From Candidatus Hermodarchaeota archaeon (GTDB lineage: Archaea > Asgardarchaeota > Hermodarchaeia > Hermodarchaeales > Hermodarchaeaceae), in NCBI GenBank assembly GCA_016839805.1, contig JAEOTO010000006.1, positions 32,001 to 96,000 of the forward strand: a DNA stretch of 64,000 nt, given 5' to 3'. This document shows, piece by piece, positions 52,510-61,095 of the stretch. Made by a program: the position numbers and the translations under genes. Under the pieces are notes generated by a model. It was given only the letters and a program-made list of their open reading frames with translations, did no database searches and was not told the origin of the DNA. The stretch's first letter is position 1. Every line of letters starts with the position of its first letter.

Positions 52510-52672
52510 ACTGATATCCTCGCCTCACAAATCAGAAACAAGTATTAAAAAAACTACCTCAAAGAGAACCTTATACACCCCTACTACACCAAGCAATCCG
52601 CCAAAAAGCTTATCAGCGCCCTCCCATAGTCAACAATAGCAGAACCAACGCATCCTGGGATGTGAGCGGGCA

Positions 52673-53563
52673 ATTATCCATAACGCAATACTTTTCACCA
52701 TCAGCCCTCGCACAGACGAAGTCGGACTCCAAGCCAACGTCATCTTCCGCAAACAATACTGGCGCGTCGCCCTCAACGACGACATGATCCGCGAATTCCT
52801 CCGCGCCTACAAAGAATTCATGAGCCACGTCCAAAGTACCGACATCCCCACCCTCCCCATCCACATCCAAGGCGCCAAATACATCTTCACCAACATCGAA
52901 GACCTCCTCCTCGTCTTCATCAGCCACATGCAAGACGAAGACAACCGCGTCGCCGAAAAAGTCAAAACCGCCCTCCGCATGCTCGTCGGCAAATACGGCA
53001 CCGAACACATCAAAGAACTCGGCAACAACGACACCGCCGAACCCATCGAAGACCTCATTGACAACTACATCATGAGCAAACTCAAAGTCAGCCTCGTCGG
53101 CGAAGGCGGCGTCGGCAAAACCACCCTCCTCCGCCTCCTCAAAGGCAGCGCCCCACCCACCGAATACGTCCCCACCATCGCTCTCAGCATCGAACAAATC
53201 GAAGCCACCCGCTACGGAACCTACTCAATAATTTTATGGGACTTCGCAGGACAAGAGCGGTTTCGCCGGCTCTGGACCATTTATTTCAGGGGCTCAGACA
53301 TCGTATTCATCATCACCGACTCCACCCTCAACAACGTCATTGCCACAAAAGAAATCCTAGATGTCATCCGAAAAGACGCACCGGGTGTCCCTGTCTGGGC
53401 GATTGCCAACAAACAAGACCTCGAAGGCGCCCTCAGCCCCGAACTCGTCGAACGCATCCTCGGCATCCCCGCCTTCGGCATGGTCGCCATCGACCAAACC
53501 CGCAAAGAAGAAATGCTCCAAATTTTGCTCGATGCCGTCGATCGCTACATCGGGACGGAATAA
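52673..53563 (+). CDS. Longin-like domain + small GTPase (Arf/Rag-like); probable ATT start at 52673
   Basis: GEGGVGKTT, PTI, WDFAGQ, ANKQD. In-frame extension IIHNAILF...FRKQYWRV aligns with MIHNVFIM...FHRQYWSV of the 57870 paralogue. Confidence 0.88.
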   Translation: MIHNAILFTISPRTDEVGLQANVIFRKQYWRVALNDDMIREFLRAYKEFMSHVQSTDIPTLPIHIQGAKYIFTNIEDLLLVFISHMQDEDNRVAEKVKTALRMLVGKYGTEHIKELGNNDTAEPIEDLIDNYIMSKLKVSLVGEGGVGKTTLLRLLKGSAPPTEYVPTIALSIEQIEATRYGTYSIILWDFAGQERFRRLWTIYFRGSDIVFIITDSTLNNVIATKEILDVIRKDAPGVPVWAIANKQDLEGALSPELVERILGIPAFGMVAIDQTRKEEMLQILLDAVDRYIGTE

Positions 53564-55452: not shown

Positions 55453-56118
55453 ATGGTGAGTAGAATTATTGGGGAGACTCTTTTGTCTATTGGAAATGTT
55501 GATGGGCTTATCCAAGAGTGGAGAAGAGATAAAAAGCGGAGGTCTAGGAGGGGAACGTTTGCTCAGGATCCGAAGGGCTACCAGCAGTTCGTTGCTACAG
55601 TAGCGGGTCAATATCTTCCAAAGATCAGAGCTTTCCTTACGTCGGATTACCATGATCGAAAAGCGGCTCTTAAGACGTGGAGAGAGCTTATCGCTGAGTT
55701 TGGGGAGGATATGAGGATGTTGGATGCATTTGATCCAACTGGTAACACTCAGTTCTTCGCTGCCATTGTCACTGCTCAGGGAGCCCTGCGAGATAAGGAG
55801 GCTAAGAAGGCATTTGAGCAATCGAAAAAAGAGCCTAGTGACGCCTTCGGGAATCCTGAATTCATCAGCAGTATAGCAGCTTCAATCGACACAATTCTCG
55901 ATCAGACGTTCCATGCGATGCGGGGGATGATTGGCAAGGATTTACGGCGCTCATTGATTAGAAAAGCTTCCCAGAAGCTGCATAATACCTTAGCACAAGG
56001 ATTGGTTGAAGCCATTAATGATCTAACTGCTCTTCTTCTCCCCTCGTTGGTCATTGTAGAAATGGAATTAGAGAAATTCCACATTAAGAAACTGAAGGTT
56101 CCTGAACGGGGTCAGTGA
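55453..56118 (+). CDS. Hypothetical helical protein
   Basis: 221-aa ORF; no motif recognised. Confidence 0.55.
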   Translation: MVSRIIGETLLSIGNVDGLIQEWRRDKKRRSRRGTFAQDPKGYQQFVATVAGQYLPKIRAFLTSDYHDRKAALKTWRELIAEFGEDMRMLDAFDPTGNTQFFAAIVTAQGALRDKEAKKAFEQSKKEPSDAFGNPEFISSIAASIDTILDQTFHAMRGMIGKDLRRSLIRKASQKLHNTLAQGLVEAINDLTALLLPSLVIVEMELEKFHIKKLKVPERGQ

Positions 56119-56282: not shown

Positions 56283-56648
56283 GTGTGCTTTAAAATACCT
56301 CGAGTAATAGATTTTGAAATTCCAGCTGATGATATTGAACGTATTACGCAGTTTTATACGACAGTGTTTGGCTGGAAGATCGAAAAGTGGCCAGGACCAG
56401 TAGATCACTGGTTTTTAATTACCGGTGATGATTCGGAGCTAGGAATTAATGGTTCCTTTGCAATGCGTGAGGATTTTCCCGAAGGTACTACTGTGAATGT
56501 GATTGGTGTGGATGATGTGGACAAGTATGCAGCGTTAGTGGAGGCGCATGGGGGTCAATTGGTTGGTGACAAGATTGTGATTCCTGGTGTAGGTTGTTAT
56601 CGCTATTTCAAAGATACCGAAGGGAATCTAATGGGAATGATGCAATAA
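56283..56648 (+). CDS. VOC/glyoxalase family protein
   Basis: FEIPADD, FYTTVFGW, IPGVG, FKDTEGN. Confidence 0.88.
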   Translation: MCFKIPRVIDFEIPADDIERITQFYTTVFGWKIEKWPGPVDHWFLITGDDSELGINGSFAMREDFPEGTTVNVIGVDDVDKYAALVEAHGGQLVGDKIVIPGVGCYRYFKDTEGNLMGMMQ

Positions 56649-56828
56649 GATTCTTCTTCAAGATAATCAGCCAAAAAGTGACATTTTCGGATTCAGTATC
56701 TCGGAATGAATGCACCTAATCCGCTATAAGTGCAAAAACCTTTTCTGCGCCGTTTCTTAACGTTGGTTGAAGCCAAGACATTGAACTTGATTTGGTCTAC
56801 ACAATTCCAGGCTAGAAGGTGAGTTATC

Positions 56829-57848
56829 ATCCCTCGGGGGCTCGTATTAAGTCATTGGGATACTAAGGAAGGATTAGAAATTTTAGCGAAATTTCCGACC
56901 TCCCTGGACTTCGATGTTGAACATCTATCCATGATGTTTTACAGCTGTGCCCTAGAAGAGCCTGGAACCGTTTTTCAAGTATTTCCAACTAAAGATGTGA
57001 CAGAAAGGGCAGCAATCACCTGTACACGGACCATCCGAGATGGAGTCGAAGACGACTTCTGTATCACCGCGTTGCTCACTTCCGAAGAAGAGGGATCTGC
57101 TTATGAAGCAATCCTCAACTCTACTCTAAAACGAATTTTAAATGCGAAAAGTGATTCTCCCAAACGTTCACGCCGCTATCGACAAATTCTCTCAGATAGC
57201 TATCGCAAAATTGAACGGCGGGGTGGTTCACGTGACCGCTCATTGTGTCCCTACAAATATGAACGACCAGTCAAGGGTGATAAACTCACCTCCTATTGCC
57301 GTGTCGTGAAAAAACAATGCTATCTCACCATTTACGAAATGTCGGGTTATCCCCAATGTCCCCGGTATATTCGGCGTGAACGGCAAATCCAACTCGCTAA
57401 TGCCCGACGATTAGTACGTGCTGGCATCAACCGTATTCTCGAAGAATACGATCAAGAACGACAAAAGTCTAAAAAGCATAAACCAGGAGCCTGGAGCGAA
57501 CCGGTTCACGCCATCCTCGAGAGGCTATTCGCCATTCTCTCAGTTTCTCCTGAAACTGAAAACTACTCCCACCGTATTGTTGAACATGTTGGCAAAGAAG
57601 GGTTTTTCCAGGGGCATCCTCGTCCAATTATAGCCGCATCAATTGCTTATTATAGTGCCAAACAGACCGGTGATTCCTTACCCGAAAACGATATAATCGA
57701 ACTTGTGGGATGTTCCCGTACTTCCCTACGTCGAAATTACAGGGAACTCCGAAACCTCCTCGGTTCGGACGATAAAAAACTCCCGCAGCATAAACGACGT
57801 CAGCGTCGCACATCAAGACGAGAAAAAGCCGCTACTCGTGCAGAATAA
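56829..57848 (+). CDS. Longin/uDENN-like domain + Cys4 motif + TFIIB cyclin-fold repeat fusion; probable ATC start
   Basis: In-frame upstream IPRGLVLSHWDTKEGLEILAKFP aligns with MPRGLSVCRWDDKVGLRIVGVYP (59518); C-terminal GFFQGHPRPIIAASIAYYSAKQTG...VGCSRTSLRRNYREL resembles the TFB repeat. Confidence 0.75.
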   Translation: MPRGLVLSHWDTKEGLEILAKFPTSLDFDVEHLSMMFYSCALEEPGTVFQVFPTKDVTERAAITCTRTIRDGVEDDFCITALLTSEEEGSAYEAILNSTLKRILNAKSDSPKRSRRYRQILSDSYRKIERRGGSRDRSLCPYKYERPVKGDKLTSYCRVVKKQCYLTIYEMSGYPQCPRYIRRERQIQLANARRLVRAGINRILEEYDQERQKSKKHKPGAWSEPVHAILERLFAILSVSPETENYSHRIVEHVGKEGFFQGHPRPIIAASIAYYSAKQTGDSLPENDIIELVGCSRTSLRRNYRELRNLLGSDDKKLPQHKRRQRRTSRREKAATRAE

Positions 57849-57869
57849 AACACAGGAGAATTAACTCGC

Positions 57870-58739
57870 ATGATTCACAACGTCTTCATCATGACCCGCG
57901 AAGGACGCATGGCCTTCCACCGTCAATACTGGTCCGTCGATATCACCACCGAAGATCGACAAGAATTCGTCGCCACTTACAAACACTTCGAAAAAGACCT
58001 CGGAGCCACCGTCGACCTCCCCATACATGTTAAAAACAACAAATTCATCTACACCGATGCTGGCACTCACCTCCTCCTCGTTTTCGCCGTTGACATCTCC
58101 GACGAAGACGAAAAAATCCGAGAACTCCTCAAAAAAACTCGCGAACTCCTCATCGACAAATACGGTCACGAAATCGACGCCTACATCCAAAAACCCGCTC
58201 CCCTAGGCCAAGCCTTCCAAGGCTTCGAAAAAGAACTCGACAGCGTCATCGTCACCATGCTCAAAATCTGCCTCCTTGGTCAAGGTGGCGTCGGCAAATC
58301 CACCATGCTCAAACTACTAACCGCCGACAGCATCCCCGGCGAATACTACCCCACCATCGCCGTCGACATCGAAACCCTCCAAGGCGTGCGCTTTGGCCCC
58401 TACGAACTCGCCGTCTGGGACTTCGCAGGACAAGACCGCTTCCGCTCCCTCTGGAACTACTACCTCCGGAACGCAGACGCCGTCTTACTCGTCACCGATT
58501 CCACCTTGAAAAATGTCTTAGAAACCCGTGATATTTTAGAAATCGTCCGCAAGAATGCACCCGCCTGCATTGCCTGGGCCATTGCCAACAAACAAGACCT
58601 CCCCGGCGCCCTCGCCCCCAAACTCGTCCAACGCATCCTCGGCGTCCAAGCCTACGGCCTCGTCGCCATCGACCCTCGCTATCGCGAAACCCTCTACAAA
58701 ATCATCCTCGGCGCCGTCGCTGAAGCCACCACCGATTAA
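57870..58739 (+). CDS. Longin-like domain + small GTPase (Arf/Rag-like)
   Basis: N-terminal MIHNVFIMTREGRMAF; GQGGVGKST, PTI, WDFAGQ, ANKQD. Confidence 0.9.
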   Translation: MIHNVFIMTREGRMAFHRQYWSVDITTEDRQEFVATYKHFEKDLGATVDLPIHVKNNKFIYTDAGTHLLLVFAVDISDEDEKIRELLKKTRELLIDKYGHEIDAYIQKPAPLGQAFQGFEKELDSVIVTMLKICLLGQGGVGKSTMLKLLTADSIPGEYYPTIAVDIETLQGVRFGPYELAVWDFAGQDRFRSLWNYYLRNADAVLLVTDSTLKNVLETRDILEIVRKNAPACIAWAIANKQDLPGALAPKLVQRILGVQAYGLVAIDPRYRETLYKIILGAVAEATTD

Positions 58740-58747
58740 ACAGTGAA

Positions 58748-59281
58748 TTATCCCTTTTTTAGCTGGTTTCGTTTTAATTGGATACCTACCATAGGAATTA
58801 TGGTGATAGTTCCCATTAAAAGAAATACGGCTGCAGATAAAACATATGGAGTTAGTAACATCAGGAGGGCTCCGGTCACAAAGACCATTATAATGATCAG
58901 CATGGCTGCGATCCAAAACCCCGGGAGTTCATGCTTGGACACATACTGCATTCGCCATAACGCCCAAACCAGATGAACCACGGCAAACATGACAAACCAC
59001 CCTAGAATATAATCCAACCACGGAATCACATCCATCGGTAACCATCCATACGCAACCCATGAATACGGGCTCAACAAAATAAAAGCTCCAGATACAAGAG
59101 CCCCTCCAATCCATGTAGCTAGAGCCAACGGCACAAACAACCATTTACTCCACCTTTCCACCTCCCTCCCGCCCAACGTCGGTCGAAGTAACCAATTAAC
59201 CCACAAAGTAAACCCCCAACTCCCAAGTAAAATACAAACAAATGGAAGAAAGAACGTTAAACCCGGAATCACATTCAACAT
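58748..59281 (-). CDS. Membrane protein (~5 TM), function unknown
   Basis: Hydrophobic segments; GGAG SD upstream. Confidence 0.65.
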   Translation of the reverse strand: MLNVIPGLTFFLPFVCILLGSWGFTLWVNWLLRPTLGGREVERWSKWLFVPLALATWIGGALVSGAFILLSPYSWVAYGWLPMDVIPWLDYILGWFVMFAVVHLVWALWRMQYVSKHELPGFWIAAMLIIIMVFVTGALLMLLTPYVLSAAVFLLMGTITIIPMVGIQLKRNQLKKG

Positions 59282-59517: not shown

Positions 59518-61095
59518 TTGCCACGTGGTTTATCAGTCTGCAGGTGGGACGATAAAGTTGGCCTGCGTATTGTGGGTGTGTACCCGCGGAACCTAGAGGT
59601 TTCTGAGGATGATATGTTACGTGTTTTTACGGCGCACGCTATGGGTAAGCCGGAAGCTGGTTTTCTCACTATGACTCTTGAAGGAACGAACCTGGCGGTA
59701 GCGTCTTTTTACACTGGCATTCTCCGTGGGCGTGATCAGTTTTGTATTATGATGTTTATGGATTTGGATGAAGAACCGCGGAGTTTTGAAGAGGGGTTGA
59801 CGCTTGCGTCGAGTGAGATTGTGGAGAATATTGGTGAGCCGGAGTTTGTTGAGTATCTGGGTGAAGTGTTTGAGAAGCTGAAGCGGATGGTGGAGCTGTC
59901 CGTGGAGCAGCGGCTTGCTAAGGTGTTTGTGGATCAGGAAACGCGGTTGTTGATGCATAAGTTGGCTCGTGGTGGTATTTCCGCAGAAGAGCTCCGGGAA
60001 TGGCTTGAGTTACAGACAGGGAAGCATTACCCCGATTTAGGGCTAGTAACTCTGCCTTTGTTACGAAGTGGACTAGTGGAAGAGGATTGGATTAACGCGG
60101 TGTCAGACAACTGTGTCTTTCTAGTAAACGATTTGTTGGGTGCACGGTTTCCGCCAGAGCAGGTGATTAAACTTGCTAAAGGTGGCGGGTTAAACAAGGA
60201 GCAATACAACGAATTAGAAACGCGTGTGAAGAGTTTCTTTGAGGGTTATCAGTGGACTGAAGAAGATACGATTATTATTGGTCAGTTGCTGCTAGATCCG
60301 GATATTTATGACGTGACGAAGACGTTACGGCGGAAAATTGCGCATAAATCCGAGTTGGCGGGAGTGGTCGAAAAGGAAGCATCATTGGATAATGTGCTTC
60401 GACGTCTAGAGCAGGTACAAGTGATTACGAAATTTGGTGAAAATGCTGTTGACGTAGCTGCTAACGACGATCCGTTGATTGTGTTAATGGCGGATGTACA
60501 CTTTGAGTCTTTCTTCCCGGAATTTCTAGTATTGCGTATTCAGGAACGGTTAGAGGCTAAGGATATTCATCCGGATATTGCGAAGCGGCATCTAGAGTTG
60601 CTTAGTGAAATGTATATGCGTATGCGAGAGAAGATGAAAGAACGCAAGAAGCGAAAGAAGGAAGAGGAAGAAGAGGAACTTCCTGAAATCGAAGCTGAAA
60701 TGGTTCACCCGCCCGAAGTCGCTGAGGAGGAACCTCTAGAAACCGCTGAAATGCCTCCACTTGACGAAAAAGAAGCGAAACGCATTCGAAAAGAGGAGGA
60801 GAAAGCACGTAAGGAAGAGGAAAAACGTCTAAAAGTCGAGGAGAAGAAGCGGAAGAAGGAAGAGGCGCAAAAGAAGAAGGAAGAGGAGAAGCAGAAGAAA
60901 GAGGAAGAGAAGCGTCGCAAGGAAGAGGAGAAGCAGAAGAAGGAAGAGGCGCAAAAGAAGAAGGAAGAGGAGAAGCAGAAGAAAGAGGAAGAGAAGCGTC
61001 GCAAGGAAGAGGAGAAGCAGAAGAAAAAGGAAAAAGAGAAGAAGCAAAAAGAGGAAAAAAAGAAAGAAAAGGAACCTGAAGCTGAGGCTACCTAA
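59518..61095 (+). CDS. Longin/uDENN-like domain protein with K/E-rich single-alpha-helix tail
   Basis: WDDKVG..IVGVYP N-terminus typical of longin/uDENN modules; C-terminal (KKEEE)n. Confidence 0.72.
   Translation: MPRGLSVCRWDDKVGLRIVGVYPRNLEVSEDDMLRVFTAHAMGKPEAGFLTMTLEGTNLAVASFYTGILRGRDQFCIMMFMDLDEEPRSFEEGLTLASSEIVENIGEPEFVEYLGEVFEKLKRMVELSVEQRLAKVFVDQETRLLMHKLARGGISAEELREWLELQTGKHYPDLGLVTLPLLRSGLVEEDWINAVSDNCVFLVNDLLGARFPPEQVIKLAKGGGLNKEQYNELETRVKSFFEGYQWTEEDTIIIGQLLLDPDIYDVTKTLRRKIAHKSELAGVVEKEASLDNVLRRLEQVQVITKFGENAVDVAANDDPLIVLMADVHFESFFPEFLVLRIQERLEAKDIHPDIAKRHLELLSEMYMRMREKMKERKKRKKEEEEEELPEIEAEMVHPPEVAEEEPLETAEMPPLDEKEAKRIRKEEEKARKEEEKRLKVEEKKRKKEEAQKKKEEEKQKKEEEKRRKEEEKQKKEEAQKKKEEEKQKKEEEKRRKEEEKQKKKEKEKKQKEEKKKEKEPEAEAT
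60853..61020 (+). repeat. Perfect in-frame tandem duplication, 2 x 84 bp
   Basis: KKEEAQKKKEEEKQKKEEEKRRKEEEKQ twice, identical at DNA level. Confidence 0.85.

Follow-up and report, generated by a model that had tools for sequence, protein, structure and literature searches.

A longin-Cys4-TFB-repeat fusion protein encoded in a conserved cluster with Arf-like GTPases in one family of Asgard archaea

In a 64,000-nucleotide window of the Candidatus Hermodarchaeota archaeon assembly GCA_016839805.1 (contig JAEOTO010000006.1, positions 32,001 to 96,000; coordinates below are those of the window), we describe the domain identities, conservation, operon structure, start codon and phyletic range of a gene, here called X, whose product joins an NPRL2-like longin domain, a four-cysteine (Cys4) module, a long basic helix and a single repeat of transcription factor B (TFB). 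X lies in a cluster with the conserved gene order GTPase 2, X, GTPase 1 and a longin-bearing paralogue of X, which we call the 59518 protein after the position of its start. Because both the architecture of X and this order are kept across 19 genomes of two genera, the fusion is more than a chance arrangement. We tentatively favour, with a little less than even confidence, the view that X offers the neighbouring GTPases a longin platform and couples it to a DNA-binding output; the operon suggests, without proving it, that a GTPase switch is wired directly to gene expression.

The structure of X was taken from an AlphaFold2 (AF2) model built on 27 sequences, with a mean predicted local distance difference test score (pLDDT) of 78; residues are counted from the initiating Ile unless stated otherwise, AF2-model numbering running two residues higher. 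In the model, the N-terminal region (residues 6-133 in AF2-model numbering, pLDDT about 80) has the topology beta-beta-alpha-beta-beta-beta-alpha-alpha with a five-stranded sheet (DSSP assignments E6-13, E17-24, H32-41, E49-54, E63-72, E75-84, H91-107 and H115-133). The best Foldseek match of this region is the Lokiarchaeal Roadblock-Longin protein 8yqg, with further matches to FLCN, GATOR1 NPRL2, Lst4 and DENND1, the Foldseek probability being 1.00 for FLCN, Lst4 and the VAMP7 longin. VIA Z scores reach 13.9 against the Lokiarchaeal longin (8yqg_B, 135 residues aligned) and 12.8 against NPRL2 (9o5d_D, 131 aligned), and the nearest cluster in the ESM Atlas is eukaryotic NPRL2, SMCR8 and Avl9 also being present. 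Pfam returned nothing at E<=10 for residues 1-135, and so neither PF06218 (NPRL2/NPR2) nor PF11704 (Folliculin), and a PDB profile search with the combined alignment of the X and paralogue longins likewise gave nothing at E<=10, so that it is by fold that the domain is assigned. The model makes the N-terminus of X a longin of the GTPase-regulator (uDENN/NPRL2) kind, as an earlier sequence-only reading of this DNA had anticipated. That reading had also aligned the residues encoded upstream of the listed start codon with the N-terminus of the 59518 protein, and the alignment stands: the frame is open, and residues 1-130 of X match the paralogue in BLASTP (E 9e-12, 24% identity over 130 aa). Both longins have P2, W10, D11, G15 and P23, and a W-D-x3-G motif at the beta1-beta2 turn is common to X and the 59518 family. 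Most likely, a duplicated N-terminal domain of the 59518 protein gave rise to the longin of X.

Towards its C-terminus X carries one five-helix cyclin repeat (residues 225-315 in AF2-model numbering), which superposes on the TFB of P. woesei (1d3u_B/1ais_B) with a VIA Z score of 15.0 and a root-mean-square deviation of 1.3 A over 89 residues (range 1.3-2.5). The top seven matches of a PDB profile search with the family are all TFB or TFIIB, the NCBIfam TFIIB model PRK00423 matches the repeat at model positions 224-306 of 312, and PF00382 matches 18 of the 27 family members at E<=0.1 (best 4.7e-6). The single TFB/cyclin-fold repeat discerned in the sequence-only reading is thus confirmed by structure and by sequence profiles; the expectation that a longin and PF00382 would both be detected holds for the longin by fold and for PF00382 in those relatives, but fails for the window's own protein, which stays under the Pfam threshold. 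Structure alone is ambiguous as to which TFB repeat is concerned (Z 15.0 to the second of P. woesei TFB versus 14.8 to the first of human TFIIB), and it is the sequence profiles that settle the matter in favour of the second. A hidden Markov model (HMM) of the X repeat scores 21.8, 21.5, 13.8, 12.9 and 11.8 bits against the second repeat of five TFBs of the host genome versus 5.3, -2.0, 0.8, 6.6 and -0.3 bits against the first repeat of the same proteins, and 6.1 (second) versus 5.8 (first) bits for a sixth TFB; 78-81 columns align with the host second repeats without gaps. On these profiles, the repeat of X is a descendant of the C-terminal repeat of TFB, the one that bears the helix-turn-helix (HTH).

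Two tandem cyclin repeats are not found in X, all of whose TFB/TFIIB structural matches span one repeat, whereas the host TFBs show two PF00382 matches each. X has no first TFB repeat, Zn ribbon, B-reader or B-linker and consequently cannot be a general TFB or recruit polymerase in the manner of one; in TFB-TBP-DNA structures it is mainly the first repeat that holds the TBP stirrup. Few stretches of X vary as little as the HTH block, whose recognition helix reads S-R-T-S-L-R-R-N as against T-E-V-T-V-R-N-R in host TFBs, most positions being different. Since the TFBs encoded in the same genome have other residues at these base-reading positions, binding of the TFB-recognition element (BRE) through the HTH, which the sequence-only reading had brought up from known TFBs, is unlikely for X.

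The four-cysteine segment that had been noticed after the longin is invariant in all four positions in 27/27 sequences, in the contexts C142-P-Y, Y-C159, C166 and C179-P (AF2-model numbering). The cysteines are spaced by 16, 6 and 12 residues and there is no CxxC pair anywhere in X; for want of a CxxC knuckle, the module is not a classical TFB Zn ribbon. An HMM of the region reaches a non-significant 2.2 bits against the N-terminus of host TFB, and neither Pfam at E<=10 nor an ESM Atlas feature search returned a match for it. AF2 predicts a beta-hairpin and a short helix (142-179 in AF2-model numbering, pLDDT 67-77), and the stretch, among the most conserved and most basic parts of X (net charge about +9 across residues 126-180), is probably a metal site. 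The basic helix that follows is 36 residues long (180-215 in AF2-model numbering), has many invariant Arg, Gln, Asn and Ala residues, and overlays with its end the helix preceding the second TFB repeat (model residues 199-325 against 1d3u_B 1171-1299). At the C-terminus, the disordered tail ends in R-A-E or a near variant in 19 of the 27 aligned orthologues.

The linkage of X with GTPase 1 is as tight as had been claimed, the stop codon of X (57846-57848) preceding the GTPase 1 ATG at 57870 by 21 bp. The spacer measures 21-22 nt in 14 loci, with a GGAG core in each, and in the sister genus (g2) the two genes overlap as ATGA; adjacency in one form or the other, short spacer with Shine-Dalgarno sequence (SD) or ATGA, holds in every locus long enough, in both genera, which answers the synteny check that the sequence-only reading had proposed. 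A longin fold, a cyclin/TFIIB fold and a conserved linkage, whose absence that reading had named as telling against it, are all present. GTPase 1 matches Pfam Arf (4.9e-20), Roc (5.4e-20) and Ras (4.1e-17), and its motifs G1 (GQGGVGKST), T162 in switch I, G3 (DFAGQ) and G4 (NKQD) are invariant in 18 sequences. Its N-terminus finds AP sigma subunits as best PDB matches of a profile search (residues 1-100 to 1-97, E 0.03) and Pfam Clat_adaptor_s at E 0.016; we call it a sigma-adaptin-like longin because the AP sigma alignment runs end to end. Across 18 orthologues of the two genera the G domain is nearly invariant, whereas X falls to 53% identity, and this invariance points to an unusually strong constraint on the GTPase 1 surface. 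Over the full length GTPase 2 shares 43% identity with GTPase 1, and it lies directly upstream of X in genus g2 and in one metagenomic contig (L001). A 59518-type gene comes next after GTPase 1 in 12/19 loci, where the sequence reaches far enough. The first 375 residues of the 59518 protein are modelled by AF2 at pLDDT 88 with a predicted template modelling score of 0.77; its longin matches NPRL2 (9o5a_H) at Z 13.1 and its second winged helix ArsR/SmtB regulators at Z 8.5-8.7, and its top Foldseek matches are GATOR1 and FLCN, weakly (E about 2e-3). The combination of an NPRL2-like longin with an HTH domain thus occurs twice in the cluster, with a TFB repeat in X and with winged helices in the 59518 protein.

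X is single-copy in 19/19 genomes of one Asgard family, comprising two genera, and a search of 381 further genomes of the phylum at E<=1e-20 gave no instance of the fusion; among 1.84 billion cluster representatives it makes up just three clusters. The NCBI taxon labels on X homologues are mixed (Thor-, Hod-, Hermod- and Promethearchaeota). Orthologues of the 59518 protein, of 360-380 aa, occur in other Asgard families, with a GTPase nearby in 3/9. Judging from this distribution, the longin-winged-helix paralogue is older than X, and X looks like a family-specific derivative in which a duplicated longin was combined with a Cys4 module and half a TFB core, between two GTPase genes.

In the reading that we tentatively favour, X would be a signalling adaptor specific to its lineage, one half of it for input and the other for output. 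On the input side, its longin would serve as a platform, as longins do in GATOR1, FLCN-FNIP and C9orf72-SMCR8, probably as a heterodimer with the 59518 paralogue, and this platform would bind the adjacent Arf-like GTPase or GTPases and read or change their nucleotide state. The sequence-only reading had imagined the tie to a GTPase switch as a longin-longin pairing; the eukaryotic precedent of NPRL2-NPRL3 suggests that the longin partner of X would be the 59518 paralogue and not the sigma-adaptin-like longin of GTPase 1. On the output side, the basic Cys4 module, the long basic helix and the TFB-derived HTH repeat would most likely bind DNA at specific sites, with promoter-specific repression or recruitment tied to GTPase state as the effect, so that X would act as a site-specific repressor or adaptor and no initiation factor. 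As the HTH keeps the TFB framework with most base-facing residues changed, a DNA specificity of its own, rather than for BRE, is to be expected. DNA-binding-type outputs as a theme of the cluster are made more credible by the 59518 protein, which independently joins the same longin to winged helices. A wider version, in which X and the 59518 protein form an NPRL2/C9orf72-like longin pair that reads or sets the two Arf-like GTPases, each longin protein having its own DNA-binding output, is possible but doubtful.

Several points weigh against an adaptor with a DNA-binding output. The cyclin fold of X also matches CDK cyclins at Z 12-13, cyclin folds are often purely protein-protein modules, and we know of no autonomous function of a lone second TFB repeat. 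The window's own X stays below the Pfam TFIIB threshold, with Cyclin_C (E 0.08, more exactly 0.082) as its sole match, which accounts for the label 'cyclin family protein', and it is not listed by the PF00382 genome scan. Neither the longin domain nor the Cys4 module belongs to a family recognised at sequence level. No regulon is visible, the conserved blocks upstream of X (Table 1) having no other genomic copies beyond chance, and the restriction of X to one family makes it no general Asgard mechanism. Binding of X to a GTPase, to its paralogue and to DNA, and any effect on transcription, are what we infer. Finally, the GP motif at the start of beta2 has been described as specific to GTPase-activating protein (GAP)-type longins (PMC12290439). 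In X, G15 is invariant and the next residue is Leu, giving G-L instead of the diagnostic G-P; in the 59518 paralogues the residue after the motif Gly is Leu, Ala, Thr or Ile, never Pro. Putative arginine fingers of X, as candidate counterparts of the catalytic Arg78 of NPRL2, are the invariant R60, R67 (near-invariant) and a position within the beta4-beta5 turn that is basic in most sequences.

In an alternative scenario, X might be a pure GTPase-regulator subunit, forming a longin heterodimer with the 59518 protein that acts as GAP or guanine nucleotide exchange factor for both GTPases and has no role on DNA or in transcription; the Cys4 module and the cyclin repeat would then be structural or protein-binding, like the C-terminal domains of NPRL2 and NPRL3. 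The breadth of the cyclin fold just mentioned suits this scenario, protein contacts being a common task of such folds, as does the fact that NPRL2, NPRL3 and FLCN are the best structural matches of both longins. Two longin regulators would face two GTPases, as GATOR1 or FLCN-FNIP face RagA/C. The longins of NPRL2 and NPRL3 heterodimerise, and an arginine on a longin loop stimulates GTP hydrolysis by the Rag GTPase (PMC8534245); C9orf72-SMCR8 acts likewise on Arf, with W33-D34 and G38-P39 of C9orf72 placed before beta2 in the catalytic pocket (PMC12290439), and it is at the position of this motif that W-D-x3-G of X is located. NPRL2-like proteins have moreover already been described from Thor metagenome-assembled genomes (MAGs) by Liu et al. 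Nevertheless, we consider the scenario somewhat unlikely, since the repeat is by sequence specifically TFB-like, an HTH-bearing second repeat and no generic cyclin, and since the HTH helix and the basic Cys4 module, helix and tail are the most conserved and most positive parts of X, which fits nucleic-acid binding better than a scaffold; the ArsR-like winged helices of the paralogue argue in the same direction. A complex prediction for full-length GTPase 1 with X residues 1-135, with alignments as input, scored 0.01 and counts neither way.

X might also be a TFB-derived modulator of basal transcription, a decoy on BRE-like DNA or a binder of TBP, TFB or RNA polymerase, whose longin serves for dimerisation or ligand sensing only and whose GTPase neighbourhood reflects co-expression with no physical coupling. 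The second-repeat homology and the conserved HTH would sit well with such a role, the at least five full TFB genes and the partial matches in the genome imply that TFB duplication and specialisation are active in the lineage, and truncated regulatory TFB paralogues are reportedly known in Sulfolobus (TFB3). It is distinctly unlikely all the same: X and the GTPase gene are closely coupled in every case, even to the point of the ATGA overlap, as would be expected if they served one function; the longin belongs to the GTPase-regulator class, and its paralogue is itself linked to GTPases in other Asgard families; and the changed base-reading residues of the HTH speak against competition for BRE.

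The open reading frame (ORF) list of the window puts the start of X at ATG 56931, whereas we assign it to the ATC at 56829. Read directly from the sequence, the frame 5' of ATG 56931 is open as far as the TGA at 56820-56822, and the 34-codon extension reads I-P-R-G-L-V-L-S-H-W-D-T-K-E-G-L and onwards. The only candidate initiators are GTT, ATC and ATC. The extension is kept in 19/19 orthologues, and its 34 codons vary like coding sequence, with 24, 13 and 33 variable sites at codon positions 1, 2 and 3. The codon immediately 5' of the Pro codon is ATC or ATT (ATY) in 19/19 orthologous loci of the two genera (window 56816-56831 and loci L003 and L005-L022 for the AUC/AUU start), and the end of a GGTG (here 56818-56821) stands exactly 7 nt before it in 18/19 orthologues and 6 nt in L001, while the spacer varies in sequence and the two codons before ATY are likewise not conserved. 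In the 59518 family, the aligned position is an ATG or TTG start. On the strength of the conserved ATY at a fixed distance from GGTG, the coding-type variation and the paralogue start, we take ATC 56829 as the start of X. That the real start is instead ATG 56931, giving a 305-aa 'cyclin family protein' with the longin-like residues an untranslated leader, could draw on the absence of any ATG, GTG or TTG between the stop at 56820 and 56931 and on database entries, most of which begin at or near that Met, but it is highly improbable given that the 34 codons are conserved as protein with third-position-biased variation, make up longin strands beta1 and beta2, align residue for residue with the paralogue start and follow an SD at a fixed distance, and that an ATG occurs at the ATY site or 1-4 codons upstream of it in two orthologues (L001 and L009). 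A GTG within the SD, used as a start followed by a frameshift, was also considered and rejected, because in the two loci read a stop closes that frame 15-16 codons on.

Database homologues of X are named merely 'cyclin family protein' or 'hypothetical', and those entries that do not begin near the internal Met begin at some arbitrarily placed GTG or TTG codon. Gene callers, faced with an AUC or AUU start codon, have cut off the first two longin strands; compared with the conserved frame, the entries are truncated, up to 38 residues being lost. The AUC/AUU start would probably hold X low relative to GTPase 1, made from the same mRNA at an AUG. Upstream of the start lie three conserved blocks, which are near-invariant across the genus while the spacer around them varies. 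Elsewhere in the 2.3 Mb genome, block 1 has a single match, which we take to be due to chance, as it has 3 mismatches, lies inside a 588-aa ORF and is about what chance would give; for block 2 (56732-56751) a scan of the genome found no second copy. Block 1 might act as a promoter-proximal operator or otherwise, blocks 2 and 3 (the latter at 56759-56777) are a candidate BRE/TATA region and 5' leader, and together the blocks could be a promoter, operator or leader element, possibly an autoregulatory site. Rfam gave nothing at E<=1 on 56500-57000.

Table 1. Gene X, its domains and upstream elements, and the neighbouring genes (positions in the window)
Feature	Position	Strand	Description
Upstream block 1, TTCAGTATCTCGGAATGAA	56692..56710	+	about 120 nt 5' of the start codon; near-invariant in 12 genus-level orthologous regions
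Upstream blocks 2 and 3, GCAAAAACCTTTTCTGCGCC then AACGTTGGTTGAAGCCAAG	56732..56777	+	conserved in genus g1 orthologues
Shine-Dalgarno-like AAGGTGA	56816..56822	+	its TGA (56820-56822) is the in-frame stop closing the upstream frame
Gene X, longin-Cys4-TFB-repeat protein	56829..57848	+	339 aa, ATC start, TAA stop 57846-57848
NPRL2/FLCN-type longin	56829..57221	+	X residues 1-131; W10-D11-x3-G15 at beta1-beta2 turn, invariant R60
Cys4 module	57240..57362	+	X residues 138-178; C140, C157, C164, C177 invariant in 27/27 sequences
Long basic helix	57360..57467	+	X residues 178-213; net +6, joins Cys4 module to cyclin repeat
Single TFB-type cyclin repeat	57483..57770	+	X residues 219-314; ends in HTH G-C-S-R-T-S-L-R-R-N-Y-R-E-L
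Disordered basic tail	57771..57845	+	X residues 315-339; net +7, pLDDT <50
Intergenic spacer X-GTPase 1	57849..57869	+	21 nt, GGAGAA about 10 nt before GTPase ATG
GTPase 1	57870..58739	+	289 aa; sigma-adaptin-like longin (about 1-110) and Arf/Ras-type G domain (about 128-289)
GTPase 2, longin-Arf-like	52673..53563	+	296 aa; probable ATT start; 3.3 kb from X here
59518 paralogue	59518..61095	+	525 aa, TTG start; NPRL2-type longin, two winged-helix domains, Lys/Glu-rich repetitive tail

Some further observations concern the neighbouring genes. At the start of GTPase 2 (52657-52684), the nearest ATG, at 52660, is followed at once by a TGA, and the ORF list begins the gene 37 codons later, at 52784; in the alignment with GTPase 1, I-I-H-N of GTPase 2 stands opposite M-I-H-N. 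A minus-strand ORF at 52613-53197 was discarded as a low-complexity antisense artefact of GTPase 2. The 221-aa protein encoded upstream of X (55453-56118) belongs to no family and has a 57% identical orthologue just upstream of X in another genome (L003:5084-5710), and may be a conserved neighbour within the genus. Between GTPase 1 and the 59518 gene, the minus strand holds a 177-aa hydrophobic, membrane-protein-like ORF (58748-59281) without a Pfam match; it looks like an insertion in this genome, where the 59518 gene lies 779 bp downstream of GTPase 1, because the gap is only about 190 bp in relatives (e.g., L003 and L010). The tail of the 59518 protein (60640-61095) consists of about 150 residues, almost only Lys and Glu, in repeat units of which EEKQKKEEEKRRKEEE is one example; in other Asgard families the relatives are without this tail and end at about 360-380 aa. 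As regards TFB itself, the genome carries five or more full genes with two repeats, two of them in tandem on contig C21, alongside additional partial PF00382 matches that lie in short frames or at the ends of contigs, TFB matches being found on contigs C21, C22, C27, C42, C23 and C44 and at the start of C26; the family is large for a 2.3 Mb genome.

The sequence-only reading had remarked that it did not know this architecture as described, and the literature searched agrees with it: we found no paper joining Asgard, longin and TFIIB, and none describing the X fusion. Work by Liu et al. (bioRxiv 10.1101/2020.10.19.343400; Nature 2021) reports an NPRL2-like family in most Thor MAGs, and the preprint (bioRxiv 10.1101/2020.10.19.343400) describes an NPRL2-like longin fused to two-component-system domains, its main text, as far as accessible, being without a TFB-repeat fusion; the 59518-type protein probably belongs to this NPRL2-like set. 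GAP-type longins in Asgard archaea have already been discussed (PMC12290439), and longin-GTPase fusions are already known from Asgard genomes (Tran et al. 2024, PMC10933270; Liu et al.). Within the accessible range of these sources, it is the TFB-repeat fusion of X that is new, Asgard NPRL2-like longins and longin-GTPases being already known.

Asgard genomes hold scores of small GTPases and of longin and roadblock proteins, almost none of them paired with a partner or an output, and the fixed pairing seen here sets two GTPases and two NPRL2-like longin proteins in one conserved block. If X does couple the GTPases to DNA, it would be a one-step prokaryotic counterpart of eukaryotic signalling from Rag-GATOR1/FLCN to transcription, and the first GTPase regulator in which a repeat of a basal factor has been taken over as effector domain. 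The cluster would then offer a tractable four-protein system for finding out what archaeal Arf-like GTPases signal to, and could test whether the logic of a longin GAP complex controlling gene expression predates eukaryotes. Even if that link proves false, X corrects a systematic mis-annotation brought about by an AUC/AUU start codon.

Compared with known systems, X and the 59518 protein resemble GATOR1 NPRL2-NPRL3 in that both longins count NPRL2 among their best structural matches, and the cluster resembles GATOR1 or FLCN-FNIP with RagA/C in that two paralogous longin proteins are encoded beside two paralogous GTPases. With C9orf72 both proteins share W-D-x3-G, in the same turn and with the same spacing as W33-D34...G38-P39. 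In contrast to GATOR1, FLCN and C9orf72, X has no detectable sequence similarity to these proteins (no NPR2 or Folliculin match in Pfam, no PDB sequence match) and has no DENN, TINI or NPRL2 C-terminal domain, bearing the Cys4 module and the TFB repeat instead, while the 59518 protein has two winged helices in their place. X further differs from GAP longins by G-L in place of G-P, and the GTPases differ from Rags, with their C-terminal roadblock, by their N-terminal sigma-adaptin-like longins. With the second repeat of TFB/TFIIB, X shares the five-helix fold and the end of the recognition helix (...R-x-x-Y-[RK]-E-L); unlike TFB/TFIIB, it has one repeat, no Zn ribbon, B-reader or B-linker, a changed recognition helix and a fused longin. 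Sulfolobus TFB3 is reportedly a truncated TFB paralogue that acts as a regulator, keeping the N-terminal Zn ribbon and lacking most of the core; both would be partial TFBs kept as specialised factors, X retaining the C-terminal repeat and adding a longin. In their longin-G-domain architecture, GTPases 1 and 2 are like the longin-fused GTPases of other Asgard archaea (Tran et al. 2024, PMC10933270). According to Tran et al. (2024, PMC10933270), however, the GTPase genes of MK-D1 do not as a rule share operons with genes for roadblock or longin proteins, whereas the pairing of GTPase and longin described here is a fixed operon.

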